Source: an uncultured Candidatus Saccharibacteria bacterium (lineage in GTDB: Bacteria > Patescibacteriota > Minisyncoccia > Phycocordibacterales > UBA9973). Taken from it: DNA of 64,000 nt. Positions 2 through 58,346 of this stretch are shown piece after piece. The first letter of the stretch is position 1. Every line of letters begins with the position of its first letter. The position numbers were made by a program, and so were the translations under genes. The stretch lies in assembly GCA_964450735.1 (NCBI GenBank), contig CAYVDC010000001.1, positions 69,577 to 133,576 on the forward strand, read 5' to 3'. The notes beneath the pieces were generated by a model that ran no database searches, was not told the DNA's origin, and saw nothing but the letters and a program-made list of their open reading frames with translations.

Positions 2-1108
2 AACAACGCCACAGCCTCAGTGACAGGAACTGTAAGTTCAGGCTCATGGGCAAACGTATTTTTGAATTCAAGTTTGTCAGCTTCTGCTGCTGCTAATGAA
101 ATCAAAAAAGTGACAGTGGCTGTTTCAGGATTGGCTGATTATGATGTTCAAGGTGTTCGTGCATTTACATTGTCAGGTTCAGGTATTCTTCCTGCTAACG
201 TATTGAATGCTTACACTGATGCAGATGGAACTAATGTTTATTTCTTCGTAACAGGTTCAAGTGGAACTGTTGTAACAGGTACAACCCTTTGCACATATGT
301 TAAACAAACAAAAGATAATTTTAGAAGTGACTTTGAAGACCGTACAGGCTCATTGACAATTCCTGAATTCAATCTTGACCCACGTTCAGAAACCGTTAAT
401 GCTAAAACTCGTAAGTTGAAAGCAAAATGGACATTTGAAGCAATGCAAGATTACAAGGCTTACTTGTCAATTGATGTGGAACAAGAGATGACACAATTCA
501 TTTCTGATTACGTTGCCACTGAAATTGATTTGGAAGTGTTGGATATGTTGATTTTGAATACTAAATCTACTGAATATTGGACTGCTGATAACAACTTGCA
601 AATCAATGCTGCTAAAACTGCATTTGTACCAATGACAAGTGGTTATTACAATTCACAAGGACAGTGGTTTCAAACACTTGGCACTAAAATGCAAAAAGTG
701 TCTAATGCAATTCACCAAAAAACATTACGTGGTGGTGCAAACTTCATGGTGGTAAGTCCAACAGTGGCAACATTGATTGAATCTATTCCAGGATATGCTG
801 CTGATACAGATGGTGAAAAATGGGAATATGCAATGGGTGTTCAAAAAGTAGGTACGTTAAACTCACGTTTTAAAGTGTTCAAGAATCCTTATTTCACAGA
901 AAACATCATCTTGATGGGTTTCAAAGGAAATAACTTCTTGGAAACAGGTGCAGCTTATTGTCCTTATATTCCATTGATGCTCACTCCTTTAGTGTATGAC
1001 CCTAACACCTTCTCCCCAAGTAAGGGCCTTATCACCAGATATGCTAAGAAGGTTGTACGGGGTGAATTCTACGGTAAGATTGTTGTTGGTGGCTTGAACA
1101 CTATATAA
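2..1108 (+). CDS. gp23: Major capsid protein, T4 gp23-like (5' end lies upstream of the window)
   Basis: The reading frame is open from nt 2 with no upstream stop. The C-terminal block GGANFMVVSP...AYCPYIPLMLTPLVYDPNTFSPSKGLITRYAK aligns with T4 gp23 GEGNFIIASR...IYYAPYVALTPLRGSDPKNFQPVMGFKTRYGI. About 160 N-terminal residues are missing relative to T4 gp23. Confidence 0.9.
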   Translation, partial: NNATASVTGTVSSGSWANVFLNSSLSASAAANEIKKVTVAVSGLADYDVQGVRAFTLSGSGILPANVLNAYTDADGTNVYFFVTGSSGTVVTGTTLCTYVKQTKDNFRSDFEDRTGSLTIPEFNLDPRSETVNAKTRKLKAKWTFEAMQDYKAYLSIDVEQEMTQFISDYVATEIDLEVLDMLILNTKSTEYWTADNNLQINAAKTAFVPMTSGYYNSQGQWFQTLGTKMQKVSNAIHQKTLRGGANFMVVSPTVATLIESIPGYAADTDGEKWEYAMGVQKVGTLNSRFKVFKNPYFTENIILMGFKGNNFLETGAAYCPYIPLMLTPLVYDPNTFSPSKGLITRYAKKVVRGEFYGKIVVGGLNTI

Positions 1109-1194: not shown

Positions 1195-1812
1195 ATGGCT
1201 TTTTGTAAAAATTGTGGAAAAGAATTGGGAAAAAGACAAACGTCTTTCTGTTCAAACAATTGTAAATTAACTAATAAAGAAAATATTCAATTAAGAACTC
1301 GTAAAAATAAAACAAACGAGAAAAACATTGCATTAAAATCTAAAATTGATGGAAAAATAATTAAAGATGTTAATAATATATCAGGATATGTGACAAGATA
1401 TTTATTAAAACATGGAATTGATGTTGGACAGAATTATCAAGAATATTTTGATATTATTCAATTAGAAGAAGTTCCTGTTTATAAGTCTAAATATTCAGAT
1501 TGGACTACAAAAGATGTTACTAATAAAAGTGGATGGATTACTGTTGAAGTGAAAAAGTACACCACTATTGACGAACATATTAAGAATTATCCAGAAGAAG
1601 CTCATTTATTTAAGACTGATATAAGAGCTATTGAAAGGGCTAATGATGGAAAACATAGACTCGAATGTAAAGTGTGTGGAGAGAAACTTGAATTCATATC
1701 AGAACTTCATCTTAGAAAACATGGAATGACAACGTTTCAATATAAATTAAAATACGGATTTCCTGAAATATTCGGAAGAGATGTCATAGCTAAATTAAAA
1801 AAAAAACTATGA
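1195..1812 (+). CDS. Hypothetical zinc-finger protein (N-terminal CxxC...CxxC ribbon; C-terminal CxxC...HxxxH Ros/MucR-like finger)
   Basis: Motifs CKNCG...CSNNC at the N-terminus and CKVCGEKLEFISELHLRKHG at the C-terminus. The function is not recognised. Confidence 0.5.
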   Translation: MAFCKNCGKELGKRQTSFCSNNCKLTNKENIQLRTRKNKTNEKNIALKSKIDGKIIKDVNNISGYVTRYLLKHGIDVGQNYQEYFDIIQLEEVPVYKSKYSDWTTKDVTNKSGWITVEVKKYTTIDEHIKNYPEEAHLFKTDIRAIERANDGKHRLECKVCGEKLEFISELHLRKHGMTTFQYKLKYGFPEIFGRDVIAKLKKKL

Positions 1813-1813
1813 A

Positions 1814-2383
1814 GTGAATGATAATATAAAAAAAATGAATCATAGGTCTAAACCTGAGATTGAAATTGAAAATTTTTTAAAAGAAAATGGAATTGAATAT
1901 TTCAATAATAGCAGAGATTTTACAGATGGACATGAAGTTGATTTTTTAATTCCTGATTTCAATTTAGCTATTGAATATAATGGAATATACTATCATTCTG
2001 AGATAATGGGAGGAAAAGATAAAAGTTATCATTTAGACAAATTAAATACTTGTTCAAAATATGGAATACGGCTTATTACTATTTTTGAAGATGAATGGCT
2101 TTTGAATAAAGAAATTGTTCTTTCTAAACTTAGGAATTTATTAAATTTATCTTCTGAAAAAATATATGCGAGGAAATGTATTATAACAGAAATTGATTCT
2201 GCTACTTCTAATTCATTTTTAGAAAAAACTCATTTACAGGGAAAATGTAGCTCTACTGTAAAATTAGGAGCATTTTTGAATGAAGAATTGATTGCTGTGA
2301 TGACATTTTCGACAGGAAGAATTGCACTTGGGGCTAAAAACATAGAAAATGAGTATGAATTAGTCAGATATTCAACAAATTAA
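1814..2383 (+). CDS. PD-(D/E)XK nuclease-like protein (Vsr/DUF559-type), homing-endonuclease-like
   Basis: EVDFLIPDFNLAIEYNGIYYHS matches the D...(I/V)E.DG..H core of Vsr/DUF559 restriction-endonuclease-fold proteins. It sits right after the capsid gene, where T4 carries the free-standing endonuclease segD. Confidence 0.45.
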   Translation: MNDNIKKMNHRSKPEIEIENFLKENGIEYFNNSRDFTDGHEVDFLIPDFNLAIEYNGIYYHSEIMGGKDKSYHLDKLNTCSKYGIRLITIFEDEWLLNKEIVLSKLRNLLNLSSEKIYARKCIITEIDSATSNSFLEKTHLQGKCSSTVKLGAFLNEELIAVMTFSTGRIALGAKNIENEYELVRYSTN

Positions 2384-2400
2384 ATGCAAATTGCGTAGGG

Positions 2401-2730
2401 TTGTTTTCTAAAATGTTAAATTATTTTATTAAAACATATTCTCCAAATATTATTAATTCTTATGGAGATTTAAGATGGACTGATTTGAAAAATAATGTTT
2501 ATTTGAAAAATGGATTTGAATTAATATCAATTAGTCGTCCTAATTATTGGTACACTCATAAACATAAGAATAGAATTCATAGATATAATTTCAGAAAACA
2601 TAAATTGATTGAAATGGGTGCTGACAAAAATAAATCAGAATGGGAGATTATGAAGGAATTTAATTATGATAGAATTTGGGATTGTGGGAATGGAAAATAT
2701 TCCCTTATAATTAATAGAAATTTAAAATGA
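2401..2730 (+). pseudogene. Possible 3' remnant or partner ORF of the upstream endonuclease (split gene?)
   Basis: It starts 18 nt after the previous stop with a non-ATG start (TTG at 2401; first ATG at 2413). It is a basic, Tyr/Trp-rich putative DNA-binding segment (NYWYTHKHKNRIHRYNFRKHKL). Its arrangement is consistent with a frameshifted two-domain homing endonuclease. Confidence 0.3.
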
Positions 2731-2824
2731 ATATAATGGTGGTTATCAAATAGTTCGTCGATTGTGGGGCAAATTTGGTGGCTTAAATTCGATTTTAAGA
2801 AGCATTTGATTTAATTTTGTTCTT

Positions 2825-2837
2825 ATTTATATAAAAC
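2825..2837 (+). promoter_or_regulatory. Late-promoter-like motif ATTTATATAAAAC, 12 nt upstream of phoH
   Basis: A member of the recurring TATTTATATAAAA family (see findings). It resembles the T4 late promoter TATAAATA. Confidence 0.45.
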
Positions 2838-2849
2838 AACATTAAAATT

Positions 2850-3509
2850 ATGTCTTCCACAGAAATTATCAAAGCGAAACGTATTCCAAAACAACCTGTA
2901 TCCTTCAAAGTTACTCTTACAGATGAACAAAAAGAAGGAAAGCGAAAAATATATGAAAATAAAGTGACAGCATTGTGGTCTCCCGCAGGAACATCAAAAT
3001 CATTTTTAGCTGTTCATACAGCGTTAGATTTATTTTTCAAAAAAGAGGTGGATAAAATATATATTTTGAGACCTGCTGTTGCAATGGAAGATTTGGGTTA
3101 TCAAAAAGGAAGTTTACAGGAAAAATTACAATATTATTTTGTTCCTCTCATGCACAATTTCTATCAGAATTATGATAAAATGAAAATTGATAAAATGGTG
3201 GAGAAAGGAGAGATAGAAATTGTTGCATTAGCTTTTATTCAAGGTGTCACTATTCATAATGCCATTTTAATTTGCGATGAAGCTGAGAATATCACAGAAA
3301 AACAAATGAGAATGATATTAACTCGACTTGGAAAAGGTTCTAAAATTATTTTCACAGGTGATGTTGACCAAATTATGTTAAAAGATGTTAAATCTTCTGG
3401 ATTTAAGAAATTAATTGATTTAGATGGTCGTTTAAATGGATTTGGAACATTTGAATTGAAACAAAATTACAGAGATGAGTTTGTACAAGAAATTTTAAAA
3501 TTATATTAA
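2850..3509 (+). CDS. phoH: PhoH-like ATPase
   Basis: P-loop-like SPAGTSKS; ILRPAV...ILICDEAENIT (Walker B) ...IIFTGDVDQI. This is the typical phage PhoH core. Confidence 0.8.
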   Translation: MSSTEIIKAKRIPKQPVSFKVTLTDEQKEGKRKIYENKVTALWSPAGTSKSFLAVHTALDLFFKKEVDKIYILRPAVAMEDLGYQKGSLQEKLQYYFVPLMHNFYQNYDKMKIDKMVEKGEIEIVALAFIQGVTIHNAILICDEAENITEKQMRMILTRLGKGSKIIFTGDVDQIMLKDVKSSGFKKLIDLDGRLNGFGTFELKQNYRDEFVQEILKLY

Positions 3510-3513
3510 TAAA

Positions 3514-4188
3514 GTGAATATTATTCTTTCAGATGGAACGCTACATTCGTTAGACACTTCCATCCCGTTCATTCGTGAACATTTTTCAAATCCAATTAAT
3601 CATGCTGTAACAATTCTCAATCAAATAAATGAGGGAATGTATAGCGACTTCATTGAAGAAAATGATGTTGTTGTTGATTGTGGAGCTAATATTGGATTGT
3701 TTTCTATTTACGCAAGTGGAATTGCTAAACAAGTGATAAGTGTCGAACCCACTCCTTCTCATTTTGCTATTCTTCAACAATTAACAAATGTATTTGAAAA
3801 TATTTTTCCTATTAATTGTGCCATTGGTGCTAATATGGGAAAAACTAAATTTTATTTTTCAAATTCAAATACAACAATGAATTCTTTAATTCAAAGAGAT
3901 GGGGAAGAAATTGAAGTAGATTGTTTTGATTTAAAAGGAATTATTTCAGAATTTAACCTCGATGGAATAGATTTTCTTAAAATTGATATAGAAGGAAGTG
4001 AAAAATATTTTTTAAATGAAAATAATTTGTTATATTTGCAAAATAAAGTGAAAAAGTTCTTTATTGAATTCCATGAAGTAGATGGAAAATCTTATTCTCA
4101 AATGAGAGAAGAATTTATCCCAATATTTTCTTCTTTAGGGTTTGATGTCAATAAAATTAGTGTGGATGCTTTATTTTGTAGAAAATAA
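3514..4188 (+). CDS. FkbM-family SAM-dependent methyltransferase
   Basis: VVDCGANIGLFSIYAS is the FkbM glycine-rich SAM-binding motif. The size (224 aa) fits that family. Confidence 0.65.
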   Translation: MNIILSDGTLHSLDTSIPFIREHFSNPINHAVTILNQINEGMYSDFIEENDVVVDCGANIGLFSIYASGIAKQVISVEPTPSHFAILQQLTNVFENIFPINCAIGANMGKTKFYFSNSNTTMNSLIQRDGEEIEVDCFDLKGIISEFNLDGIDFLKIDIEGSEKYFLNENNLLYLQNKVKKFFIEFHEVDGKSYSQMREEFIPIFSSLGFDVNKISVDALFCRK

Positions 4189-4190
4189 TT

Positions 4191-4529
4191 ATGGATAATA
4201 TCAACTATTCACTTCTCGTAAACGAATTGGGAGCTAATTTAGAACATGAATACGATGTTGAAATAGATATTCATTATATTAAATCAACAAATTCAGTTGA
4301 ACTGAGTAAAATTGTTGTACCAAAAGACAAAAGGAATCGCGGAATCGGTAAATTTGTTATGGATAAAATATGTGAATTTCTTGATAAATATTCACTTAGA
4401 ATGACCTTAACCCCAGCAAGTGATTTTGGTGGAAACAAACCCCGTTTAAAATTATTTTACAAAAAATTTGGAGTTATTCCATATAAAGGATTTGAATTTA
4501 AAAATACAATGATTAGAAATCCAAAATAA
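4191..4529 (+). CDS. Small GNAT-like acetyltransferase (tentative)
   Basis: RNRGIGKFVMDKICEF fits the GNAT motif A (R/Q-x-x-G-x-G/A). The protein is only 112 aa. Confidence 0.35.
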   Translation: MDNINYSLLVNELGANLEHEYDVEIDIHYIKSTNSVELSKIVVPKDKRNRGIGKFVMDKICEFLDKYSLRMTLTPASDFGGNKPRLKLFYKKFGVIPYKGFEFKNTMIRNPK

Positions 4530-4531
4530 TT

Positions 4532-4801
4532 ATGTACATGGTAAATGAAGTTCCAGTAGTGACAGCCCCAACATTTGAAGATTGGATAAATAGAAAATAT
4601 GATTGTAATATTTCTATTAAATATGATTATAATAATTTCGGAAACACCCTACTTGTTAATTATGTTGATGGAATTGAAAAGGTTATAGGTGATTTACAAA
4701 AATATTGTGATAACTTAAACATGAAACTTTCAATAGAAAGAGCATGTGTAAATAAAAGAGTTCCATTATACATAAAACCTCTTAGTGAATATGAATTTTA
4801 G
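4532..4801 (+). CDS. Hypothetical protein
   Basis: An 89-aa ORF packed into the operon, overlapping the next gene by 17 nt. Confidence 0.4.
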   Translation: MYMVNEVPVVTAPTFEDWINRKYDCNISIKYDYNNFGNTLLVNYVDGIEKVIGDLQKYCDNLNMKLSIERACVNKRVPLYIKPLSEYEF

Positions 4802-5552
4802 TGTAGCTTTTTGTTCCCATGTTTCTGATGATTGGTATTATTCAGTGGGTGCTGATAAATTACAAAAATCAATGAAATATTTTCATCCTGATATTCCATT
4901 TTTCTTATTTGGAGATAAGGAATTGAATTATTTATTTGGTTTACATCCTAATATCAATTGGAACACCGTCAATCCATTTGTAATCTCTCTATTGAAGGAA
5001 AAATATGATGTTGTCTATCATTTTGATGCCGATAGTATGGTGTTTGGAAAGATGGATGAACTTCTATCTCCTTCTATTTTAGAATATGATGTTATTGGGG
5101 TTAGAAATAACAATGATATTGATAGAGCAGGAAAAGACAATCCGATTACACATGGAAATATTCCTGTTCAAAAATATCTAAATGCAGGGCTTGTTGGTGT
5201 TGTTAATAATGATTTTTTAGAAGATTGGAAAAAGAATAATATTGAAATTGCTAATAGACTTCCTTTTCAAGAACAGAGTGTTTTAAATATGTTATGTTAT
5301 GAAACAGATAGCTATAAAACGCTAATTGTTGACCCAATGGATAGCAATGTTCATTATGGAATATCAGGTCTTTATGGAATAAATACCCATTGGGACAGTT
5401 GGAAAAACATGAGACTTGAAGGGGAGAATGTGATGTTAAAAGATAAAATTGTAAAAGTGGTACATCATGCAGGAGGACATAATTCAAATAAACTTTCTTT
5501 TGATATGTTTTCAGAAAATATACAATCTAAATTGAATGAAATTATTAATTAA
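4785..5552 (+). CDS. Glycosyltransferase, GT8-like (nucleotide-diphospho-sugar transferase fold)
   Basis: DXD motif HFDADSMVF; YLNAGLVGVVN matches the GT8 N(A/S)G-hydrophobic motif; C-terminal HHAGGHNSNK matches the GT8 H..G..K motif. Confidence 0.55.
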   Translation: MNMNFSVAFCSHVSDDWYYSVGADKLQKSMKYFHPDIPFFLFGDKELNYLFGLHPNINWNTVNPFVISLLKEKYDVVYHFDADSMVFGKMDELLSPSILEYDVIGVRNNNDIDRAGKDNPITHGNIPVQKYLNAGLVGVVNNDFLEDWKKNNIEIANRLPFQEQSVLNMLCYETDSYKTLIVDPMDSNVHYGISGLYGINTHWDSWKNMRLEGENVMLKDKIVKVVHHAGGHNSNKLSFDMFSENIQSKLNEIIN

Positions 5553-6201
5553 GCAACCATTTGGGTTAGGAGATATAATGTTTTGTTCTCCATTAGTAAA
5601 CCTTTTTGATAAACAACATGAATATATTTGGAAAGTGGAAGACCAATTTTTATGGCTCAAAGATTATATTCAATTCGATGAAAATGTTAAATTAGTAGGA
5701 CTTTCTGAAAATGTAGAGACGAAAGGAATTATTAATTTACAAGATGCTCAACAAACATTTGGTGGAGATTGTATGTCTGCTAAATATAGAATGTTCAATT
5801 TAGATTTTAATATTTGGAAAACACTTAAATTTAAAGTGAATTTACAAAGATGTAATAATTTAGCAAAAAAATTAAAAATAGATTTGAATAAAAAAGAACA
5901 TATTGTTCTTAATTATAACTTTGCCAATCCATCTCTTAAATACAAATACTCAGGACAATTTGATATTTCTCCAAAAAGTAGAGTAGTGAATATGGAATAT
6001 GTCAATGGATATACAATGTTCGATTGGTATTTGATTTTAAAATATGCTAAAGAAATCCATACAGTAAGCACTTCGACATTTTATTTAATATCCTTGATTG
6101 ATACAATAGGAACTTGTCATCTTTATCCAAGACTTCCAATGGAGAATAATTTAGATGCTATTCGTCCTATTATAACAGAAAAATGGAAACTCCATGAGTA
6201 A
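5536..6201 (+). CDS. Hypothetical protein with GT9 (heptosyltransferase)-like N-terminus
   Basis: MKLLIKQPFGLGDIMFCSPLVNLF resembles the GT9 N-terminus MKILIIR.s.lGDvvlttP. At 221 aa it is shorter than typical GT9 enzymes. Confidence 0.3.
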   Translation: MKLLIKQPFGLGDIMFCSPLVNLFDKQHEYIWKVEDQFLWLKDYIQFDENVKLVGLSENVETKGIINLQDAQQTFGGDCMSAKYRMFNLDFNIWKTLKFKVNLQRCNNLAKKLKIDLNKKEHIVLNYNFANPSLKYKYSGQFDISPKSRVVNMEYVNGYTMFDWYLILKYAKEIHTVSTSTFYLISLIDTIGTCHLYPRLPMENNLDAIRPIITEKWKLHE

Positions 6202-6913
6202 AATTCATGTTCTTTTAAGACATAATGTTAATTCAATTAATAGAAAGCAAAACGTTAGACCTGAGTGGTTTTCGTATCAATCTTGTTTCGATTCATTATT
6301 ATTGACACATTCAAAAGATGTCACTTTTGATATTCTTTTGGATGGAGGAAATGTAAATTCCCACCATGTAAATTTTAGAAATATCAATAATGTTTATGAA
6401 GTGCAATGTGGAACAGACGCTTCTTCATTTTTAGAATTATTATATTTTGTTAAAAAGAATTATTTAGATGGAAAATGGGGACTTAATGATGTTGTTTATT
6501 TTGTAGAAGATGATTATTTACATTTGAATAAATGGGATGTTATTCTTTCAGAAGGAATACAGTTGAATAAAAATGGATATGTTTCATTGTATGACCACCC
6601 TGATAAATATTTTCTTCCCATGTATTCAGAATTAAAATCCAAATTATACATTGGGAATTATTCTCATTGGAGGGAGACCCCCTCTTGCTGTAACACCTAT
6701 GCGTGTAGAATAGAAACTCTTATTAGAGATTTTGACATACATGAACATTATTCTCTTCCTGAACATACATTTGATGGATATGACCATCATAAATTTCTTT
6801 CATTAAATAAAAAAGGGAGTTTTTTAATATCTCCTATTCGAGCATTTAGTACACATTGTGAAAATAATTTTCTTAGTCCATTTGTAAATTGGGAAAGACA
6901 TGCAAAAAATTAA
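6194..6913 (+). CDS. Hypothetical protein in the carbohydrate cluster (possible DxD transferase)
   Basis: VVYFVEDDY is DxD-like. There is no firm family assignment. Confidence 0.3.
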   Translation: MSKIHVLLRHNVNSINRKQNVRPEWFSYQSCFDSLLLTHSKDVTFDILLDGGNVNSHHVNFRNINNVYEVQCGTDASSFLELLYFVKKNYLDGKWGLNDVVYFVEDDYLHLNKWDVILSEGIQLNKNGYVSLYDHPDKYFLPMYSELKSKLYIGNYSHWRETPSCCNTYACRIETLIRDFDIHEHYSLPEHTFDGYDHHKFLSLNKKGSFLISPIRAFSTHCENNFLSPFVNWERHAKN

Positions 6914-7547
6914 ATATGATGTAAAGAGATTTGATTGGAGTGGAATAATATCTGATGTTTTAGGTGTTAAAGGAATTGAATTATCTGAACTTAGAAGAGA
7001 TGGAATAGATGTTTTTAGAAGAGAAAATGACCAATCAACCATCTATCATAAATTGTTTTATGAATTCACTTCTAATATTACGTTCAAATCGCTCTATACA
7101 TCTTTTATTAAAGAAGTAGTTAGACCTTTATATGACGAATCCATGATTTATCAGACCATTCCCACCTTTAGAATTTGTTTTCCCGAAAATATAGCTGTTG
7201 GAGAATTTCATAGAGATAAATGGTATAGAGATGGAAAATGGGCTGATAAAGTGAAAGAAGATAATTTCTTTCTTCCATTTACACATGCTTTCGGAACTAA
7301 TACGATACAAGTAGAGAGCGAAGAAGGTAAATGTGATTATTCACCAATGGAATGTGCATATGGATGTCTTATAAAATGGGATGGTAGTAATTTAATGCAC
7401 GGGAATTACATTAATAAAACTGGAAAATGTAGAGTGAGTGTTGATTTTAGAGTGATTAAATTTTCCAATTATATTCCAAGTGAGCATGGAAGTATTAACA
7501 TGAAAACTAAATTTAAACTTGGAAATTATTACTCATTTATGCAATGA
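6900..7547 (+). CDS. 2OG-Fe(II) oxygenase / PhyH-like protein (tentative)
   Basis: GEFHRDKWY (H-x-D) plus a distal LMHGNY histidine fit a 2-His-1-carboxylate facial triad, at the spacing seen in PhyH-like hydroxylases of sugar clusters. Confidence 0.35.
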   Translation: MQKIKYDVKRFDWSGIISDVLGVKGIELSELRRDGIDVFRRENDQSTIYHKLFYEFTSNITFKSLYTSFIKEVVRPLYDESMIYQTIPTFRICFPENIAVGEFHRDKWYRDGKWADKVKEDNFFLPFTHAFGTNTIQVESEEGKCDYSPMECAYGCLIKWDGSNLMHGNYINKTGKCRVSVDFRVIKFSNYIPSEHGSINMKTKFKLGNYYSFMQ

Positions 7548-8308
7548 AAATATCTGTTATTATTCCCACTTATAAAAGCCCCCAAATTCTTGATTTGTGC
7601 CTACTTTCTGCCATAGATGGACAATGTAATCAAAATGAAATCATCGTCGTCGTAGATGGCTTCTATGAGCTAAATAAGGCTATATTAGAAAAACATTCTC
7701 AACATATAAAAATTTTAAACTTAATGGAGAATGTTGGAACAATCAAAGCTACTAATTTAGGAATATATTCGGCTTCACATGAATATATTTTAGTAGTGAA
7801 TGATGATAATATTTTTCCAAAGAATTGGGATGTTCGTCTAAATGCTTCTATTGACAATTATAAAAATAATTTTATATTAAGTCCCAATCAAATTGAACCA
7901 TTTCCTTCTATTTTCAAAGAATTTGTTATTAAAGATTTTGGAAGAAATGAAGAAACATTTGATAAACATTCATTTGATGAATTTTGTTTAACATTAAATG
8001 GAGACGTGAAGGAAAATGGTGCAAGTTTTCCATTCTTTATGAAGAAATTAGATTATTTACGAGTGGGTGGATTGGAACAATATCCATCTCCTTCGGGATT
8101 TGTTTCTGATTGGGAGTTTTTTATCAAATGTGAAATGAATGGATTGAAAATGTTAAGAGATTTTGGACTTCACTTCTATCATTTTGTTTCTGTTTCCACT
8201 AAAAATGAGGAACAAATAGCAAAATCAAGAATATTTGAGGCTAATTGTCATAAATATTTTGAATATAAATGGGGATTTAGAGCCTATAATAAACTATTAT
8301 CTAATTAA
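7544..8308 (+). CDS. Glycosyltransferase family 2
   Basis: MKISVIIPTYKSPQILDLCLLSAIDGQ...EIIVVVDG is the canonical GT2 N-terminus, and VVNDDNIF supplies the DxD. Confidence 0.8.
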   Translation: MKISVIIPTYKSPQILDLCLLSAIDGQCNQNEIIVVVDGFYELNKAILEKHSQHIKILNLMENVGTIKATNLGIYSASHEYILVVNDDNIFPKNWDVRLNASIDNYKNNFILSPNQIEPFPSIFKEFVIKDFGRNEETFDKHSFDEFCLTLNGDVKENGASFPFFMKKLDYLRVGGLEQYPSPSGFVSDWEFFIKCEMNGLKMLRDFGLHFYHFVSVSTKNEEQIAKSRIFEANCHKYFEYKWGFRAYNKLLSN

Positions 8309-8315: not shown

Positions 8316-8345
8316 TTCCAATATTTATATAAAAGAATATTGGAA
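8316..8345 (+). promoter_or_regulatory. Inverted repeat (ttccaatat / atattggaa) bracketing the late-promoter motif ATATTTATATAAAAG (8321-8335) and ending on the next ATG
   Basis: A 9-bp perfect inverted repeat; the loop contains the promoter-like motif; the 3' arm overlaps the ATG at 8345. Confidence 0.45.
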
Positions 8346-9517
8346 TGAATATAGATATTTGGAACGGCAGTTCTTCATTTTCCGCAGGACAAACATCATT
8401 TGGTTACTTTGATAGCGATGCTTCATTTATAGCAGATGCTGACAAGGTAGCCATTTTTTGTGCTAATTCTCTTGGATTTCCAATGGTTCAAGTGGAACTT
8501 GATTCGGGTTCTTTCTACAAAGCATTTGAACAAGCTGTTATGGATTATGCCAATGAGGTGTATGGACAACAGTTAGTAGATAATTTCTATTCCCTTCAAG
8601 GAACTCCCACAGGAAGTAATTTAAACAACGTTCTTGTCACCCCTTCTCTTGGGTCGATTATCAGGATTTCCAAAACATACGGAGCAGAAGCAGGAAGTGG
8701 TGGAGATATAAATGTATATTCGGGTTCTATCAAATTACATCCAAACGTTCAAGTGTATAATTTGAATGAATGGGCGGCAAATTCAGCTTCATTAACAGTA
8801 GGAGATTCAATTGAAATTAAAAGAATCTATTATCAACGTCCCCCATCAGTAGTTCAATACTATGACCCATTAGCGGGAAGTGGACTTGGAATGACTTCAT
8901 TAATGGATAGTTTTGGATTTAACGGCTACACTCCTGCAATAAATTATACATTGTTTCCATTGAATATGGACGCACTTAGAATTCAATCTATTGAATTGAA
9001 TAATGATATAAGACGTTCAGGATATTCCTTTGAATTAATGGGAAATGTTCTTAGAATTTTTCCTATCCCCACCGTTGAAACTTCTCTTTGGATTAATTAT
9101 ATTAAACAATCGGAACGCAATTCAAGCATTCTCACCACATCAGGTTCAGGTCTTGGAAGTGGACAGAGTGGACTAATCACCAATCCATCCAACGCTCCTT
9201 ATGCTAACATCACCTACTCCACAATCAATTCATTAGGAAAGTCGTGGATATTCAGATACACATTAGCATTATGTAAAAGGAAATTGGGATATGTGAGAGG
9301 AAAGTATTCAAGCATACCAATTCCAAATTCAGATGTAACATTAAATCAAGGAGATTTACTAAGTGGTGCTGATAATGAAATTACACAATTATTAGACCAA
9401 TTGAGAGATATGTTGGATAAGACATCCCGTAAATCTCAAATAGAATTACAAAATCAACAAGTGAATTATGTTAGAGACACCCTTTCAAATGTACCAATGG
9501 TAATTTATGTAAGATGA
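8345..9517 (+). CDS. Virion structural protein (baseplate/neck candidate)
   Basis: A 390-aa ORF preceded by the late-promoter motif. It heads a translationally coupled operon (ATGA overlaps) that leads into the fibre genes. Confidence 0.5.
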   Translation: MNIDIWNGSSSFSAGQTSFGYFDSDASFIADADKVAIFCANSLGFPMVQVELDSGSFYKAFEQAVMDYANEVYGQQLVDNFYSLQGTPTGSNLNNVLVTPSLGSIIRISKTYGAEAGSGGDINVYSGSIKLHPNVQVYNLNEWAANSASLTVGDSIEIKRIYYQRPPSVVQYYDPLAGSGLGMTSLMDSFGFNGYTPAINYTLFPLNMDALRIQSIELNNDIRRSGYSFELMGNVLRIFPIPTVETSLWINYIKQSERNSSILTTSGSGLGSGQSGLITNPSNAPYANITYSTINSLGKSWIFRYTLALCKRKLGYVRGKYSSIPIPNSDVTLNQGDLLSGADNEITQLLDQLRDMLDKTSRKSQIELQNQQVNYVRDTLSNVPMVIYVR

Positions 9518-14361: not shown

Positions 14362-17300
14362 ATGGCTCAAATAGTTCAATTAAAAAGAAATAGTGTAACA
14401 GGACAAATCCCAACAACAAGCAGTTTGGTAATGGGAGAATTGGCTATGAATACTTATGATGGACGTATTTTTTATAAACGTTCAGGAAGTGTTATAGCAA
14501 TAGAATCATTATTAAGTCCATCTATTAATAGTTCGTATCCAATATGGAATACAGGTAGCTTATATTTAAGTGGAAGTGGAATTGTAATTGAAGGAGCTAA
14601 TACTAATTTAGCTTTAAAAATAAAAGGTAGTAATACACAAGGAAGTGGAGTTGGAATTCAATTAGAAAATAATTATAGTACAGGAAAAACTTATCAAATT
14701 GTTTCTTATGATGATGGAACATTTGTTTTAAGGGATACTTCGGGAAACAATTTCTTTTATTTTAGTGGAAGTTTGTCATTAGTAAAAGATGGTGGAAATG
14801 TAGTGATTGGTGGAATTTCTAATACAAGTAATTCAAAATTAAAAGTGAGTGGAAGTGCAGAATTCACATCAAATGTTGTGATTTTTGGTAGTTTGACAAC
14901 TAATATAATATCAACATTATTAAAGACAACAAGTGGAGGCGTTATAACGTCATCTATTGCAGGTGTAGATTATATTGCTGGAGGGGTTGGTACTACGAAT
15001 TATCTTCCTAAATTTAGTGGAAGTGGTGTTTTAACCAATAGCGGAATTTACGACAACGGTACAGGTGTTGGGGTTGGAACTTCCGTCCCATTAGCACCCC
15101 TCCATGTTAAAGTAACTTCATCGGGTATAACGACAAACCCATTGGGGTCAGTGGGAATAATAGAATCATCAGGAGATGCTTATATAAGTATATATTCTCC
15201 AACATCAAGAGAAAAGGGATTGATATTTGGAGATAATACAAGTGAATATACAGGTGGTATATTCTACAATAGTTCAGGCGTTACTAATGGTTTAAATTTT
15301 AGAGTGAATGGGAATAATACCAAGTTAGTAATTACATCGGCAGGTAATGTTGGAGTAAACAATTCATCTCCTTCATATAGTTTGGACGTTTCGGGGACTG
15401 GTAGGTTCACAGGAGCGTTAACATTAACAACACCATTATCAGTTTCAAGTGGAGGAACAGGGACAGGAAGTTTTTATTCAAGCAGTTTATTAATTGGAAA
15501 TGGAACAGGTTCTTTAATACATAGTAGTAATTTAATATGGGATAATGTAAATGGATATTTAGGTATTAATAAAAATGGGGGTCAATTATATTCAGCAATT
15601 GATGTAAATGGAAATATTAGAATTAGAAAAGGTGATGCCTTATGGATGCCCGATTCTAATGATTCGATTAGAGTTGATGATGCACCATCATGGTATTCGG
15701 GGAATAGTAATGTTTTTACATTTTTAGGCTATGCAGGAACTTGGATATTTAGAACAAGTGATAGTTTGAGAAATGTAATGATAATAGATTCAAATATATC
15801 TAATGTTTTAAAAGTAAGCGGTTCTATTAGTAGTAGTGTTGATTTTTATTTTGGAACAACATCTGTTTCAGCTTCACTTGCTTTAAAAAATCCTTTATTA
15901 TCAGGTAGTGGATTCTTAAAACTGACATTGGGAGTCCCATCATATGTGACGGGGAGTAGTGTTCAATTTGTTAAAGGAGATGGAACTTTAGATTCTTCTA
16001 CTATTATATCAGGAAGTGGAATAAGCAACTATATTGCTAAATGGAATGGAAATTATTTAACAAGTAGTTTGATATATGATGATGGAACAAATGTTGGTGT
16101 TGGAACAACAAGCCCATTAAGAAAGTTTCATGTTGAAATAGGTTCTAACACTTATGCCTTTAGAATAGGTGTGGGGGGAACAAATTCAATTGAAATGGGA
16201 AATGAAGGAGCAGCAGGTAATTCTGTTATATCTTTTCAAGGAACAAACTTCTTCATGGGAGGAAATGGTGGAAAGGGTCTCGGAATTGGTGCAGGAGTAG
16301 TCAATGCAAATGTTCCAACAACATCAAGTTATACAAATATTGTTGGAAGTTTAGGAATTAATCAGTCAGCACCTTCATATTCGTTGGATGTAACAGGTGC
16401 GGGTAGATTTACGAGCGCATTAAAAGTTGATTCTACAACAGCAAGTACAAGTAGAAGTACAGGTGCTTTAATTGTAAGTGGAGGGTTAGGGGTTGGCGGA
16501 GCAGGATATTTTGGTGGAAGCATTATAATAACGGGGAGTGGAGGGTATTATGCACCAAATAATACAGCTTTTAGTTTTAGAAATGCAGCTAATTCAGCAT
16601 ATTTAAGGGCTTTTACACTCGCATCCGATGATAACTTAAAAATAGGTGAAGATTCAAATATATCTTATATTTTATCTAACTATATAGGTTTAGGTACATC
16701 CGCAATTTGGTCTAAAGTTACAATTGGGGGAGGTAATGTCACTTTATTAAATAATATAGATATACAGGGAGTTGTAGCAGCAAATAACACATTTTTACCT
16801 ATTATAAAACTAAATATATCAGACCAAGTATCTATTGCAAGTGGTGGGGCTGTTACAATTTTCGGTGGAAAAGTTGGTTTAGGGGTTACTGCAACAAGTG
16901 TTTTACATATTAAAGCAGGAACAGCCGCAGCAAATACTGCACCAATTAAATTAACAGCCGGAACAAATTTAACAAGTCCCGAATCGGGGTCAATAGAGTT
17001 TGATGGTACGGATTTGTTTTTCACACCATCTTCTACTCGTCGCACCTTTGCATTTTTAAATGGTAATCAAACTTTTAGTGGTGTAACAACCTTTTCAAAT
17101 ACAACCACCTCAACCTCAACCACCACAGGTGCTTTGACTGTTGCGGGGGGACTTGGTATTGTTGGAACATCTTACTTCGGAAACACTATCAATTCAGCGA
17201 CTTCCACCTCTAAAAAATTATCATTAAATAGTACGGGAAGTGAACAATTTCTCATTGCTAATAATTTTCTTAGATTGCAATATGATAATGGAAGTGCAAC

Positions 17301-20300
17301 AGGATGGCAAGGAGCAGGTGGTGGATTTGAAGTGGGAATGAATGATGCTGCTACGGTGTTCTTCCAAATGTATAATAGAACATCAAATGCACCTATTGCT
17401 TCGAGTTGGTTAACAAGTGGAATAATTGTTAATGATAATAGTGGAGGAGGTATCACACCAAGTTCAACTCAATTATTAACAGCAAGAACTTACACCACTA
17501 CAAAAGTTCCGTTTACAGTGATAGGAGCTACGTCCCAAAGCGCAGATTTATTGCAAATACAAAATGCTTCTTCTATTGCGTTAGCAGTGTTTAATAAAGA
17601 TGGATATTTAGGACTTGGAACAACGATTCCAACTCATTCATTGAGTTTTGGGATGAGTGGCTATTCAGATACTAAAACAATAGCATGGCAAAATTCAAGT
17701 TCAACAAATAGAGCAGCATATATACAAGCTGTGGGTATTGGAAATTACACTCACTACTTAGCATTTGGTGTAAATACGACAACAGCAGATGTCAATGCTG
17801 TCGAAGTGATGAGAATTGGTACTGATGGTACAGTGGCTGTTGGTACAACTACGACAGGAGGTGCTAAATTCACAATAGCTAATACAGGTTCAGGTGAAGT
17901 TGGACTTCTTCTTTTGAAAAACAGTGGAGCAAATGGAGATTCAGGAAAAATTATATTTGGAACAACAGCAGGTGGAGCAAATGGGGCGGAAATAGTTTCT
18001 AAAAGAACAGCAGGTGATTTTTCTGTTGATTTGTTTTTTAGAACAACGGATTCGGGTGGAATTCAAAATGAAGTGTTAAGGATGACTTCTACAAAATATG
18101 TTGGGATAAATAATTCTTCTCCTTCATATACATTAGATGTTAGTGGCTCTGTCAGAATTCCAAATAACACTTCTATTTATGGAAATAACATTTCAGGAAC
18201 TCCTGTTTCTTTAATCTCAATAAATACCAATAATAGAATAGTGTTATCTCAAACAGGATACACTGTTACTTTTAGTAATTTATTATTTTCCGATAATTCA
18301 ACAGAAGCAAGAATTCAAGCAGGAAATAGTGGTGGAATCAGATTCATGGCTTCAAATGCTTCCGATTTAGGAAAAATGTTTGAAAATGGAAACTATTCAT
18401 GGGGAAGTATCGTAGATAGTGGATATAAATTTGATGTTAGTGGTTCAACCCGCATCACTTCTACATTAAGTGTAACGGGAAGTGTATTCCTTTCAGGAAT
18501 AGGAAATGTTACATCAGGTTCAATAAATATTTTAATTAGTAGTGGCAGTGATTATAAAGTAAATGCTCTTTCAAGTAGTCAATTTATTTCTAATTTAGGA
18601 ATTGTAAGTGGAAGTGGAACTGCTCGTTATTATTCAGTATTCTCATCATCAGGAGTGATTGGTAACGGTGGAATGTATGATAATGGGGTGGGAAGTGGTG
18701 TTGTTAGCATGGATTATAATATTCTATATCTTGGTAACACGGCTACAAATAACACATTAAACGTTAATAGAACAGGGGCTTCTCCATCATCAATAAGTGT
18801 AACTGCTGGGGTGGCGAATCCTTCTATTACATTTGTTAGTGGATATGGTCTTGGTGGAAGATTGAGTATAGGAAGTGCTTCATTAGAAATAATGTCATTT
18901 TGGGGAGATGGAAATGTTTCCATTAACAATGCTTCCAATGCAGGATATAAGTTAGATGTTTCGGGAAGTGGTAGATATATAGGTGACTTATTTATTTCAA
19001 GTTCAACAGCTTCAACAAGTGTCACGACAGGTGCTTTAACAATTAGAGGTGGGCTGGGGGTGAGTGGTTCAATATATGGTGGAACAACTCTATCTATTAT
19101 ATCTTCGGGAAGTGCTTCTGTTAATGGAGGAATATATGTTGGAACAGGGGCTACCTTCGCTTCAAATGCAGATAATTTATTGACAGTTAGAGGAACAGGT
19201 AATTCAGCATCTTCTTGGAAGGGAAGAATAACGGCTGGAGGTGATAATTATGCCTTTTTGATGGGGGAATTTAATTCACATGCTTGGTTAGGTGGACATA
19301 ATGCGGCTCTTAATGCTTGGGCAGATTTATACATTAATCCCGAAGCAAGTGGTGCGAAAAAAGTTTTTATAGGGGCAGTAAGCGCAAGAGAGAATGCTAT
19401 ATTAACAATAGATAATGCAACAGGATATAGCACGTTTAGTGGCTCTGTCTATGCTTCTGTTGGTGCTATATATGCAAAAGCAGGAGTAAATTTAACTTCA
19501 ACATCATCATATACATTTGACGGCTATGCAAATTATGGACATTATTTAGACCTTAATAGTGGATATATTCAATTTGTTGGAAATGGAACAAAAATAGGAG
19601 GATTTTATACAGGTGCTACTAAGGGGTTTGGATTTAATAACAGTTCAATTTTGGCTTGGAATGGTGCATCTGAAACTGCGCCTGATATTTCAATAGAAAG
19701 AGTTGCTACTAATACTATTTCAGTTGGCACTGCATTAGGTGGTTCTAATAATGGAACTTTATCTGCGGGGATGATTGGTGTTGCGACCATCTCTCCATCA
19801 TATTCATTAGATGTATCAGGAAGTGGTAGGTTTACAGGAAATTTAATAATAAGTGGTGGACTTACAGGGTCTTTATTTGGCAATGCTTCTACTGCAACGG
19901 TATTACAAAGTGCGAGAACTATTAACGGAACTTTATTTGATGGTTCTGCTAACATAACAATATCCATATCAGGAAGTGCCTTATTAGGAACAACTTTAGC
20001 TTCAAATATAGTCAGTAGTTCATTAACAACTTTAGGAACTATTGGTACAGGCTTATGGAATGCAACGAAGATAAGTGAAGTGTATGGGGGAACTAATCAA
20101 TCTACATATACTGTCGGTGATATGCTTTATTCAAGCGGAAGTAATACATTGAATAAATTGGCGATTGGTTCTTCGGCTCAAATGTTAATTGTAAATAGCG
20201 GCATTCCGTCTTGGCAAACTGTTAGTGGAGATATTACAATTACCAATGCAGGTGTAACGGCTATTGGTTCAAGCAAAGTTACTAATACAATGCTTTCTGG

Positions 20301-54883: not shown

Positions 54884-56005
54884 ATGGATAAATCTGCTAA
54901 GATAGTTTTAGGCACGATTTGGGGAGATGAAGGAAAAGGGAAAATGGTTAATTCTCTATCAAATTCATCTCCCAATCCAATTGTTATTCGCTTTAGTGGT
55001 GGACAACAAGCGGGACATTGTGTTATTGAAAATAATATAAAACATGTTTTTTCTTCATACGGAGCAGGAACATTACATGGAATTGAAACATATTTAACAG
55101 AAGATTGTACATTCTATCTTCCTTCTATTTTAATAGAAAATAAAGTGTTAAAGGAAAAGAATGTTTATGTTCCAAAATTAAAAATTCATCCATTAGCTAA
55201 AATTACCACTCCATACGATGTAGCCTATAATAGACTAATGAGTGGAAAAGGTTCAACTTGTGGACTTGGTGTAGGAGCTACGATGAAACGTCATTTAGAA
55301 ACTCCATATAAGCTCCATGCTATTGATTTGAAATATCCCTCTATTTTAAATGCTAAAATGGAGGAAATAAGAAAATACTATGAAGAAAAAATCATAGCAG
55401 AAACAAACTATTTTATTCGTGATTTTGTTGAATTATATCAAGATGAATTAACCGTGTTTTTTTGCGTTCTAAGCGACGTTCTCTCGTTGGTTGATATAAT
55501 TCCCTATTCATACTTAGAACGCTTCTCTACGTTGATATTTGAGGGGTCTCAGGGCATTCTATTAGATATGCACTTTGGTATTTTTCCAAATGTTACATTT
55601 GCGAACACTCATTCGATAAATGCTATTAAAATTTGCAAAGAATTGGGAATAGAAAATATTGAAACTTTTTATATTTCTCGTTGCTATTTAACAAGACATG
55701 GTAGGGGGTGGATGGGTAATGAAATTTTAGAATCTGAATTGAAAAACAATGACGAAGAAATCAATGTCTATAACAAATATCAAGGAGAATTTAGAGTGGG
55801 TACATTTGATTATGATTTACTAAATTATGCAATTGAAGTGGATAGAATTTTCAATCTTGATTCAAAGATGACTTTAGTAATTAATTGTTTAGACCAATTA
55901 GACGATTTTACATTAGATGAATCCAAGTTAAAGTTTCAGTTTAATAACATTTTATTGGGGGATAGTCCAAATACATTTTTAAATTTATATGAAAAAGCAA
56001 TTTGA
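54884..56005 (+). CDS. Adenylosuccinate synthetase family protein, short form (PurA-like; PurZ candidate)
   Basis: GTIWGDEGKGKMV matches PurA GTQWGDEGKGKIV; FSGGQQAGHCV matches YQGGHNAGHTL; FEGSQGILLDMHFG matches FEGAQGTLLDIDHG; NCLDQLDD matches TKLDVLDG. At 373 aa it is closer to archaeal PurA and phage PurZ lengths than to bacterial PurA (~430 aa). The IMP-site GTTGRGIGP is replaced by GSTCGLGVG, and TTGRRRRTGW by LTRHGRGWM. Confidence 0.8.
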   Translation: MDKSAKIVLGTIWGDEGKGKMVNSLSNSSPNPIVIRFSGGQQAGHCVIENNIKHVFSSYGAGTLHGIETYLTEDCTFYLPSILIENKVLKEKNVYVPKLKIHPLAKITTPYDVAYNRLMSGKGSTCGLGVGATMKRHLETPYKLHAIDLKYPSILNAKMEEIRKYYEEKIIAETNYFIRDFVELYQDELTVFFCVLSDVLSLVDIIPYSYLERFSTLIFEGSQGILLDMHFGIFPNVTFANTHSINAIKICKELGIENIETFYISRCYLTRHGRGWMGNEILESELKNNDEEINVYNKYQGEFRVGTFDYDLLNYAIEVDRIFNLDSKMTLVINCLDQLDDFTLDESKLKFQFNNILLGDSPNTFLNLYEKAI

Positions 56006-57719: not shown

Positions 57720-58005
57720 TATTAAACCAATGAATGATAAGGTGGTGTTAGTTGAAAAACAATTAAACACACAAACGTATGGAGCTATTGTTAGACCTGA
57801 TATGGGAAAAGAAAAACCTATTGTTGGACAGGTTGTACAAACTAATGATGGATATTATTTAGGAGATAATTTTGTGAATTCTTCTGTTAGTGTTGGTGAT
57901 TTAGTTCTTATCCCTTTATTTGGTACAGTGAAAACAGTGATAGATAAGCAGGAATATTTAATTTGTGCTGAAAATAACATTCTTGGAAAACTAATTGAGC
58001 AATGA
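57711..58005 (+). CDS. groES: Co-chaperonin GroES / T4 gp31-like
   Basis: MYSIKPMNDKVVLV matches GroES MNIRPLHDRVIV. It is ~98 aa with a mobile-loop region followed by a beta-barrel (VGDLVLIP...EYLICAENNILGKL). Confidence 0.75.
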
Positions 58006-58346
58006 TATATAATGTTCTTTTGTCGGATTTAAAAAAGTTTTCAGATGTTGATTTAGAAAAAGTTCAAGAATCAATATCTCGAATCACATATCCTTTATTT
58101 GGAGAATTGGGACATTCTTCTAAACCAACCATCAATCTAAATAATGTTTCACATGAAATCAAAAATGTTAGAATTGAAAATGATAAAGTTTATGGAGACA
58201 TTCTTTTTACAAAAAATAATGGAAAGAGGGCTTCTGAATATTATGAAAAGGGAATAGCTAAGTTTGAAATGAGAGATGTAATATTCATTCAAAACGATAA
58301 ATGTGTAACAGAGATAATTTCATTTGATTTAGTAAACAAACAATAA
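58002..58346 (+). CDS. Hypothetical protein between groES and groEL
   Basis: 114 aa. Confidence 0.4.
   Translation: MIYNVLLSDLKKFSDVDLEKVQESISRITYPLFGELGHSSKPTINLNNVSHEIKNVRIENDKVYGDILFTKNNGKRASEYYEKGIAKFEMRDVIFIQNDKCVTEIISFDLVNKQ

Follow-up and report, generated by a model that had tools for sequence, protein, structure and literature searches.

What is a run of sugar-modifying genes doing among the virion genes of a T4-like phage, and to what does the glycan that it appears to build become attached? The question is raised by positions 3514-8308 of a 64-kb stretch of contig CAYVDC010000001.1 (the window; all positions are those of this stretch), where eight genes, here called A to H, lie between phoH and a gp13-like head-completion gene. 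The phage genome is roughly 185 kb and our analysis covered the 64-kb window. We read the block as an accessory cassette for glycan assembly in a T4-like myovirus that probably infects Bacteroidota, and the weakest step in this account is the identity of the acceptor. By analogy with other virus-encoded systems, we propose that the acceptors are the phage's own virion proteins, a model to which we assign a probability of about 0.4.

The eight open reading frames (ORFs), all on the plus strand, fill the block exactly, with gaps of no more than 2 nt or overlaps of 4-17 nt between neighbors, and an independent gene caller applied to the public contig returned the same eight genes (Table 1). The phoH stop codon lies 4 nt before the cassette and the gp13-like gene begins 36 nt after its last ORF. 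These coordinates, together with the PhoH and gp13 matches of the flanks, bear out an earlier note on this DNA, which had described eight adjacent plus-strand genes running from phoH to the virion genes. Its placement of the cassette in the structural block also holds: in the related phages immuto and Mel-JY01 one or two genes separate the major capsid gene from phoH, and gp13 comes next, directly or after a single small gene. Judged from this gene order, the 4.8-kb block is an insertion at a conserved phoH-gp13 junction. A sister phage, L106, whose major capsid protein and gp13 are 97% and 92% identical to those of the window phage, has the cassette at the same place but without B and C, in the arrangement phoH-A-D-E-F-(two small ORFs)-G-H-gp13. 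The ratio of nonsynonymous to synonymous substitution rates (dN/dS) between the two phages is 0.07-0.23 across A, D, E, F, G and H, and the core A-D-E-F-G-H therefore has the signature of functional genes under purifying selection, not of chance ORFs.

Table 1. Features of the window, with strand and principal basis for each assignment
Feature	Position	Strand	Basis or remark
Gp23 major capsid protein gene, 3' part only	20-1108	+	T4-type virion gene
TATTTATATAAAA copy before phoH	2824-2836	+	13 nt from start codon
phoH, upstream flank, first gene of the predicted unit	2850-3509	+	PHROG PhoH-like 4e-60; Pfam PhoH
A, FkbM-family S-adenosylmethionine (SAM) methyltransferase	3514-4188	+	Pfam Methyltransf_21 1.7e-14; TIGR01444 2.2e-25
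B, 112-aa mini-GNAT-like protein	4191-4529	+	weak GNAT signals
C, 89-aa ORF, phage-specific	4532-4801	+	no family match
D, GT8-like GT-A glycosyltransferase, DxD = D81-A82-D83	4785-5552	+	NF011718, WbbM profile match
E, compact GT-B glycosyltransferase, GT9-like fold	5536-6201	+	AlphaFold2 (AF2) model, Foldseek
F, GT-A-fold glycosyltransferase, family without Pfam model	6194-6913	+	AF2 model, Foldseek
G, 2-oxoglutarate (2OG)-Fe(II) oxygenase, carbohydrate-cluster type	6900-7547	+	TIGR04324, invariant residues
H, glycosyltransferase family 2 (GT2) enzyme, soluble	7544-8308	+	Pfam Glycos_transf_2 5.3e-16
TATTTATATAAAA copy before gp13, end of the cassette unit	8322-8334	+	10 nt upstream of gp13
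gp13-like head-completion gene, downstream flank	8345-9517	+	Pfam Phage_T4_gp13; PHROG head-tail adaptor
912-aa protein, repeated Cys-containing modules, poly-Thr linkers	27815-30553	+	candidate acceptor, speculative link

The assignments are strongest at the two ends of the cassette, where the FkbM methyltransferase (A) and GT2 enzyme (H) named earlier were both recovered by profile searches. A is 91% identical to its L106 counterpart (dN/dS 0.07), had no match when its profile was compared with the PDB, and is probably a sugar O-methyltransferase. H scores 59.4 bits against PF00535 (cut-off 23.3), contains VVVDG and NDD motifs, and has PglI (4e-7) and GalT1 (1e-5) as its best PDB sequence matches. 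We hold with moderate confidence the earlier call of D as a GT8-like enzyme with a DxD motif. A D profile built from three sequences, two of them homologs, matched WbbM residues 355-579 in the PDB (1.7e-7, ~210 residues), which we take to be the GT8 domain, and aligned D81-A-D83 of D with D-S-D of WbbM; on the other side, D has no Pfam match and its score against NF011718, a lipopolysaccharide (LPS) 3-alpha-galactosyltransferase model, is 4e-4, far under the model cut-off. D is 89% identical in L106, and its start codon is probably the ATG at 4791, the public gene call being 253 aa.

The next two enzymes belong to large families for which Pfam has no model. E had been described as a GT9-like fragment; the likeness to GT9 stood and the fragment did not. 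Its AF2 model (pLDDT 96.4) is that of a complete, compact GT-B protein, and we assign it a GT9-like fold with moderate confidence. The top six Foldseek matches in the PDB are all GT9 enzymes (including Veillonella GT9 3tov, WaaC, WaaF and the protein heptosyltransferase TibC; TM 0.42-0.54). E is 221 aa in length, as against ~320-350 for GT9 enzymes, has no GT9 Pfam match, and its profile found nothing in a PDB sequence search. An exhaustive profile search gathered 1323 cluster representatives of ~230 residues. Q7, G12, D13, K83, W94 and D163 are invariant in E, and G12-D13 resembles what we presume to be the Asp13 catalytic motif of WaaC. In longer relatives the E domain is fused to GT2, DUF5672 or FkbM/MT24 methyltransferase domains, and is thereby tied to glycan assembly. 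F, which the earlier note left unnamed, has an AF2 model (pLDDT 93.1) whose Foldseek matches include GnT-I, POMGNT1, the glycosyltransferase domain of LH3, Mimivirus R699 and TarP. E105-D106-D107 is invariant in F, which has 387 homologs; the Pfam GT2 model was reached by one of 45 of them. WD40 matches of the F profile in the PDB were spurious, produced by summed repeat hits. The gene content first described was thus accurate and the cassette is slightly richer, with four soluble glycosyltransferases, D, E, F and H, in place of three and a fragment.

G was correctly called a 2OG-Fe(II) oxygenase, at a moderate level of confidence. All 21 family members tested matched TIGR04324, the sporadic carbohydrate cluster 2OG-Fe(II) oxygenase (best 1.3e-14), and all 21 missed its 150-bit cut-off (G itself scored 27.8 bits), which places G in a family related to TIGR04324 and not within it. 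The HxD...H iron triad (H104, D106, H167) and the 2OG-binding R178 are all invariant, and there are 336 homologs at ~60% identity. G has no Pfam match, Tet_JBP included, and its profile found nothing in a PDB sequence search. Expected catalytic motifs are present in every enzyme of the cassette, and ORFs lacking catalytic residues, a case the earlier note had raised, were not seen. B, previously called GNAT-like, gives weak signals: Acetyltransf_7 at 5e-5, under the curated cut-off, phrog_10691 at 6e-15, a PHROG acetyltransferase at 4e-3, a PDB match at 0.05, and a sequence, RNRGIGK, that by eye resembles an acetyl-CoA-binding motif. B is possibly an acetyltransferase, and has no match in L106 or in 80 viral loci (see below). 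C has no match in any family library and is absent from L106 and the other loci; ORF packing and the public gene call suggest that it is protein-coding.

None of the eight proteins contains a hydrophobic or membrane-like segment, and Pfam and NCBIfam identify no nucleotide-sugar biosynthesis gene among the eight. The gene lists with Pfam annotation, which cover the window contig and six related contexts, contain no priming phosphoglycosyltransferase, flippase or polymerase.

When would these enzymes be made? The 13-mer TATTTATATAAAA occurs in six exact copies in the window, all on the plus strand and 7-19 nt before start codons; chance would give ~0.07 copies, and none of 300 simulations produced more than 2. 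The genes behind it are phoH, gp13, a 141-aa gene, and those for the tail sheath, tail tube and baseplate hub. Exact copies are absent from the replication-gene half of the window, and the gp13 copy is exactly kept in L106; with two mismatches allowed there was no enrichment. The T4 late consensus TATAAATA is found no more often than expected by chance, and the real signal is the reverse complement TATTTATA on the plus strand, extended to the 13-mer. A generic sigma-70 and terminator scan gave background levels, and the 13-mer was uninformative in the modules of other phages, whose promoters differ. We infer that TATTTATATAAAA is the late promoter of this phage and that phoH is transcribed late together with the cassette as a single unit, the stretch 3022-8308 having shown no convincing terminator. 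The late-type promoter noted earlier after the cluster is therefore real as a motif and a candidate as a promoter. The argument for late expression is stronger than the earlier note knew: phoH and the cassette are preceded by the very 13-mer that stands before the sheath, tube, hub and gp13 genes, which makes late co-expression likely on sequence grounds.

Enzymes of these families have established activities: a glycosyltransferase transfers a single sugar from its nucleotide-sugar donor, FkbM-type proteins are O-methyltransferases, and 2OG oxygenases introduce hydroxyl groups or oxidize their substrates in other ways. We propose that the cassette would be transcribed with phoH from the late-type promoter common to sheath, tube, hub and gp13. 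Because it contains no sugar-activation genes, its enzymes would draw on host nucleotide sugars and, acting sequentially in the cytoplasm, would assemble a short oligosaccharide, about four sugars long, and modify it by methylation, oxidation and possibly acetylation. This glycan would be transferred to virion proteins before or during assembly, for example to Ser/Thr-rich fibers or to the poly-Thr linker protein. The scheme in full, a late and self-contained cassette that makes an O-glycan in the cytoplasm and attaches it to the poly-Thr linkers or Ser/Thr-rich fibers of virions in a Gram-negative host, we regard as doubtful.

Several findings point toward virion proteins as acceptors. The cassette forms a predicted late unit inside the structural block of two sister phages, the window phage and L106, and in the relative L022 (see below) a G homolog adjoins the tail sheath gene. 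The lack of membrane segments and of lipid-carrier functions, described above, fits enzymes of the cytoplasm. PBCV-1 and other giant viruses, for which there is no LPS to modify, encode relatives of the E fold. Possible acceptors are encoded downstream. The Thr-rich protein that the earlier note had placed downstream is confirmed: 35% of its 912 residues are Ser or Thr, with 32 of 40 in the densest stretch, and it consists of modules of two sequence types joined by poly-Thr/Pro linkers of up to ~50 residues. It has weak PHROG virion and tail matches only. The fibers are 25-26% Ser+Thr. A 2363-aa ORF at 14362-21453, which follows a 947-aa fiber-like protein, has 16% Gly, 25% Ser+Thr and a local G+C of 0.33-0.40 compared with ~0.30, and is presumably a giant fiber or tail protein. 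Collagen-like acceptors for a hydroxylase and glycosyltransferase pathway were also considered; there are no G-X-Y runs in any protein of the window.

The mycobacteriophage precedent for virion glycosylation, which is said to have been documented by Freeman et al. in 2023, serves as the model for our proposal, since phage-encoded soluble glycosyltransferases could there modify structural proteins in the cytoplasm. The systems differ in that the major capsid protein of the window phage has no C-terminal Ser/Thr extension. A second parallel comes from the chlorovirus PBCV-1 and the Megavirinae, whose own glycosyltransferases and methyltransferases work in the cytoplasm and make a glycan specific to the virus (PMC7826918). 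PBCV-1 encodes an uncharacterized protein of the same size with the fold of E (TM 0.76, rmsd (root-mean-square deviation) 3.6), and other viral models in BFVD that resemble E come from Synechococcus phage S-T4, Bodo saltans virus and others; Mimivirus R699 is among the fold matches of F. The fusions of E domains to GT2 and methyltransferase domains are comparable to the three-domain capsid-glycan enzyme A064R of PBCV-1 (PMC7826918). These are eukaryotic viruses, however, the likeness is at the level of fold only (11-20% identity), and the PBCV-1 match has no assigned function.

Several observations weigh against virion proteins as the target. The 912-aa poly-Thr protein has no homolog in 50,697 phage genomes, so that co-occurrence of the module with a poly-Thr protein could not be shown in cultured phages. 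The major capsid protein is without a Ser/Thr-rich C-terminal extension, and D, E, F and G have no mycobacteriophage match in tblastn searches of the 50,697 phage records (H and A were not part of this search). The late-promoter role of the 13-mer is read solely from the genes behind it. Most phages carry the module at a distance from their structural genes: in Mel-JY01, homologs of E, F and H (39%, 44% and 50% identical) are consecutive within a larger glycosyltransferase cluster at 83-90 kb, far from the structural genes and beside those for nucleotide metabolism, and gp13 is within 10 kb in none of 80 loci from IMG/VR. The step in the earlier note from position to virion decoration is weakened accordingly. 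GT8, GT9 and GT2 are typical families of LPS and O-antigen synthesis, and the nearest cellular homolog of G sits in a classical surface-polysaccharide locus. Support for every acceptor is indirect, and our figure for virion proteins stays below an even chance; virion decoration is a reasonable hypothesis that falls short of proof.

The earlier suggestion that the enzymes might extend the general O-glycosylation system of the Bacteroidota is, for virion proteins, unlikely. That system transfers its glycan in the periplasm and virions assemble in the cytoplasm, a difference of topology that separates enzyme from substrate.

The surface-polysaccharide locus just mentioned is central to a competing explanation, in which the soluble enzymes act at the cytoplasmic face of the inner membrane on lipid-linked intermediates of the host (an undecaprenyl-PP-linked O-antigen, capsule or general O-glycan unit, or the LPS core) and so remodel its envelope, for example to block superinfection or to keep progeny from adsorbing to debris. 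We consider this a possibility to be taken seriously, though one we would not bet on. Five matches to G were found in bacterial genomes. Two are in Ferruginibacter; one of these, on a 3.97-Mb contig and 54% identical to G, lies in a locus (L020) with Acyl_transf_3, UDP-GlcNAc 2-epimerase, three GT2 and three GT4 enzymes, an epimerase and an FkbM methyltransferase. The shared 2OG oxygenase, GT2 and FkbM enzymes suggest that surface-polysaccharide loci of Bacteroidota are the likely evolutionary source of the cassette enzymes, although the bacterial locus adds GT4 enzymes, an integral-membrane acyltransferase and the UDP-GlcNAc 2-epimerase, and D, E, F and H had no tblastn match (E <= 1e-3) within ±10 kb of the Ferruginibacter G homolog. 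The resemblance of D to LPS and O-antigen GT8 enzymes, of E to LPS heptosyltransferases, and of H to PglI, which acts on an undecaprenyl-PP-linked glycan, points the same way.

Other features fit an envelope target less well. A late-type promoter in a lytic phage would leave little time to export a modified glycan, and flippase, polymerase, ligase and priming enzyme are not encoded in the gene lists examined. E homologs occur in Synechococcus phages and relatives of its fold in giant viruses. To our knowledge, the hosts of these viruses lack heptose-Kdo LPS cores, and for this reason E is unlikely to be an LPS-core heptosyltransferase. A GtrABC seroconversion module was likewise considered and set aside. 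H does match a GtrB-like PHROG weakly (4e-3). GtrB, however, carries membrane helices and H has no membrane segment, none of the eight cassette proteins matches GtrA or GtrC families, and the phage looks lytic and T4-like, unlike the temperate Gtr phages.

The remaining three bacterial matches to G are on 'Rhizobium'-binned contigs. These contigs, from 'uncultured Rhizobium sp.' metagenome-assembled genomes (MAGs; L017-L019), are 90-149 kb long with 32-33% G+C, and their G homologs are 57-62% identical; judged by composition and content, they almost certainly derive from phages and were binned with Rhizobium by mistake.

How the module is distributed among phages bears on both explanations. 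No G homolog was found in the 50,697 deposited phage genomes, and at least 125 viral contigs in IMG/VR carry one. Eighty G loci were fetched from IMG/VR for neighborhood counts: H is present in 35 (mostly adjoining G), F in 32, E in 10, D in seven and A in seven. The order A..D-E-F-G-H is identical in three of them (L043, L046, L064), and D-E-F-G-H is kept across metagenomes at 36-60% identity. Because this order is conserved across diverse phages, it suggests a product that is phage-defined and not adapted to strain-specific host glycans; hypervariable host O-antigens would fit a conserved five-enzyme order poorly. phoH lies 3-10 kb downstream in eight G loci and upstream in one. The location of the module, mostly outside structural blocks, is on the contrary what envelope remodeling would lead one to expect, as are the full nucleotide-sugar pathways, typical of O-antigen loci, in related phage islands. 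Such nucleotide-sugar genes are present in L009, L014-L016 and S-SM2. L009, a 152-kb metagenomic contig, encodes A, a D paralog, D, E, F and H with an epimerase, a split transketolase and other glycosyltransferases, and contigs of 115-166 kb combine F-G-H with dTDP-sugar isomerase, DegT aminotransferase, PglD-like acetyltransferase, sulfotransferase and RgpF.

These islands also show that the kind of cluster is not new. T4-like cyanophages already carry carbohydrate islands whose function is unproven throughout (PMC12801897), and envelope modification is the default reading of these 'LPS/cell-wall' clusters (PMC12801897). The islands of P-SSM2, S-SM2, S-SCSM1, S-SCSM2R and S-SRM01, like that of Mel-JY01, are multi-glycosyltransferase clusters with methyltransferases and sugar enzymes, and some contain direct homologs of the cassette genes: E, F and H in Mel-JY01, E inside the nucleotide-sugar island of Synechococcus phage S-SM2, and F in the S-SRM01 island. 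By gene content the cassette belongs with these known islands of T4-like aquatic phages, in minimal form. It differs from them in having no nucleotide-sugar synthesis genes, which are common although not universal in islands, in its position, where it interrupts the conserved phoH-gp13 junction within the structural block and follows a late-type promoter, and in a host that is probably a member of the Bacteroidota and not a cyanobacterium. New here are the siting of the cassette in two sister phages, at the phoH-gp13 junction and after a late-type promoter; the recognition of a conserved D-E-F-G-H module in uncultured viruses; and the two large enzyme families, those of E and F.

A third explanation places the glycan on DNA, where it would be added late to a hydroxylated pyrimidine (5-hydroxymethylcytosine (5hmC), 5-hydroxymethyluracil (5hmU) or 5-hydroxycytosine (5hoC)) and shield the genome from host nucleases. 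Systems of this type were recently demonstrated for many phage gene clusters, and LPS-like phage glycosyltransferases have been shown to hypermodify 5hmC and 5hoC; the DNA-glycosylating enzymes include TarP-resembling GT-A proteins and GT8-like second-step enzymes, and their clusters can adjoin structural genes (bioRxiv 10.1101/2023.12.21.572611). TarP is among the fold matches of F, and PMC13326640 describes group transfer onto DNA as often late, before packaging. More generally, phage DNA-hypermodification clusters (T4 alpha/beta-GT; C5-MT/5mYOX/GT; the arabinosyl-5hoC systems of RB69 and DLP3) resemble the cassette in using LPS- or teichoic-acid-related glycosyltransferases that are sometimes near structural genes and late. 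The window also encodes a C5 cytosine DNA methyltransferase (56188-57027, Pfam 2.9e-38), from which it follows that the phage DNA is probably methylated to 5-methylcytosine at some motif, and the cassette contributes a 2OG oxygenase.

The details nevertheless argue against DNA as the acceptor. The C5 methyltransferase is 48 kb from the cassette, and the gene that overlaps it by 4 nt (57024-57719, 231 aa) encodes no dioxygenase: although it contains an HxD...H pattern and was considered as a TET-like enzyme, it matches the gp45-type sliding clamp (PHROG processivity factor 9.5e-5). G has no Tet_JBP match and groups with carbohydrate-cluster oxygenases, one of them in a bacterial polysaccharide locus. 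A thymidylate-synthase homolog was not found in the window in a search of limited sensitivity, which would miss distant homologs, and the one ThyA-like match in ~100 related loci is 54% identical to E. coli ThyA and so probably a true ThyA. Unlike known hypermodification clusters, the cassette thus has no base-hydroxylating enzyme (ThyA homolog or TET/JBP dioxygenase) beside it or in the 64 kb examined of the ~185-kb genome. Related islands, moreover, hold up to about ten glycan enzymes together with rare-sugar, sulfo- and methyl-transfer steps, which far exceeds the mono- to trisaccharides reported on DNA. We regard DNA modification as improbable; the view of the earlier note that DNA is the less likely target is favored, short of proof.

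Glycosyltransferase folds are silent on the acceptor, and a fourth explanation is some other cytoplasmic molecule: a soluble or lipid-bound glycoconjugate (a glycolipid, small-molecule glycoside or modified nucleotide sugar) with a metabolic or signaling role, or a host protein. In 45 of the 80 viral loci, G is alone or accompanied by quite different carbohydrate genes, and an F homolog is found among housekeeping genes in a Verrucomicrobia MAG. In a close relative with a sheath 51% and a tube 58% identical (L022), a solitary G-type oxygenase at 710-1348 lies directly upstream of the sheath gene (1670-4033) with no neighboring glycosyltransferases, from which we conclude that G is not always coupled to F and H. 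Positive support for such an acceptor is absent, however, and the neighbors are consistently genes of glycan assembly and nucleotide-sugar synthesis; those of G elsewhere are always carbohydrate genes (GDP-mannose dehydratase, DegT, fucosyltransferase-like, methyltransferase and radical-SAM enzymes). We consider this explanation unlikely. A further F homolog, 40% identical, lies on an 85-kb contig (L007/L008; GCA_013565575.1, JACCDM011503855.1) with GT11, GT15, GT1, DUF5672, 2OG oxygenase and GDP-mannose-dehydratase-like genes; the contig numbering of that assembly suggests a very large, possibly eukaryotic, genome, and the contig may be giant-virus or large-phage sequence within it.

If virion proteins do prove to be the target, glycan shields would no longer be confined to actinobacteriophages but would also be a feature of Gram-negative and environmental phages, and host range, grazing, adsorption and immune recognition would all be affected. 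The same D-E-F-G-H module would then act likewise in many uncultured aquatic phages, virion glycosylation would be a widespread trait of environmental myoviruses, and the glycosylation machineries of phages and giant viruses would be linked through a common compact GT-B family. Glycosyltransferase islands are common in large aquatic phages and in none is the acceptor known experimentally. With six core genes, no sugar activation, synteny in many viral contigs and a late-type promoter in the structural block of two sister phages, the cassette is a tractable minimal module for deciding among virion, host-surface and DNA glycosylation.

The identity of the phage itself is drawn from the rest of the window. 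All of its large ORFs are on the plus strand, and they encode a T4-type virion and replisome: Gp23 major capsid protein, the gp13-like head-completion protein, tail sheath, tail tube and baseplate hub, together with gp32-like, UvsX-like and DnaB-like helicase proteins, a family B polymerase, sliding clamp and clamp loader. This gene content is that of a T4-like myovirus, with immuto, Mel-JY01 and RM378 as nearest relatives. Its gp13-like protein shares 40-42% identity with the proteins of Microcystis phage Mel-JY01 and Flavobacterium phage immuto and is distantly related to that of Rhodothermus phage RM378. At the DNA level a single 48-nt match was the only similarity to deposited phages, and an IMG/VR scan with gp13 for close relatives found none. 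The identical sequence is present in four public sequencing runs (SRR12404947, SRR22317058, SRR8942304 and SRR8942298), and a near-identical protein set is found on a 97-kb contig. The relationship to immuto, the low G+C (~30%) and the Ferruginibacter homolog make a host among the Bacteroidota plausible.

Several other genes deserve mention. Between the capsid gene and phoH, at 1195-2730, three ORFs (205, 189 and 109 aa) match a PHROG homing/HNH endonuclease (1.6e-57); their counterpart in L106 (271-1794) is one intact 507-aa ORF, and the region looks like a homing endonuclease in decay in the window phage. A single 413-aa ORF at 61843-63084 joins segments of a deoxynucleotide monophosphate kinase to NUMOD4 and HNH_3 endonuclease domains and helix-turn-helix motifs, and appears to be a kinase gene fused with, or invaded by, a homing endonuclease. 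GroES-like (Cpn10) and GroEL-like (Cpn60, 543 aa) chaperonins are encoded within the replication genes at 57619-59981. A 373-aa adenylosuccinate-synthetase homolog (54884-56005, Pfam 6.6e-42) and a MazG/PRA-PH-like pyrophosphohydrolase (63077-63526) lie near each other. Phage homologs of the former (~30% identity), named PurA-like or '2-aminooxy adenylosuccinate synthetase', occur in T4-like phages of Rhizobium and in cluster C mycobacteriophages. A PurZ-type role, as in 2-aminoadenine genomes, found no support, and the best solved relatives of the protein are cellular PurA enzymes.

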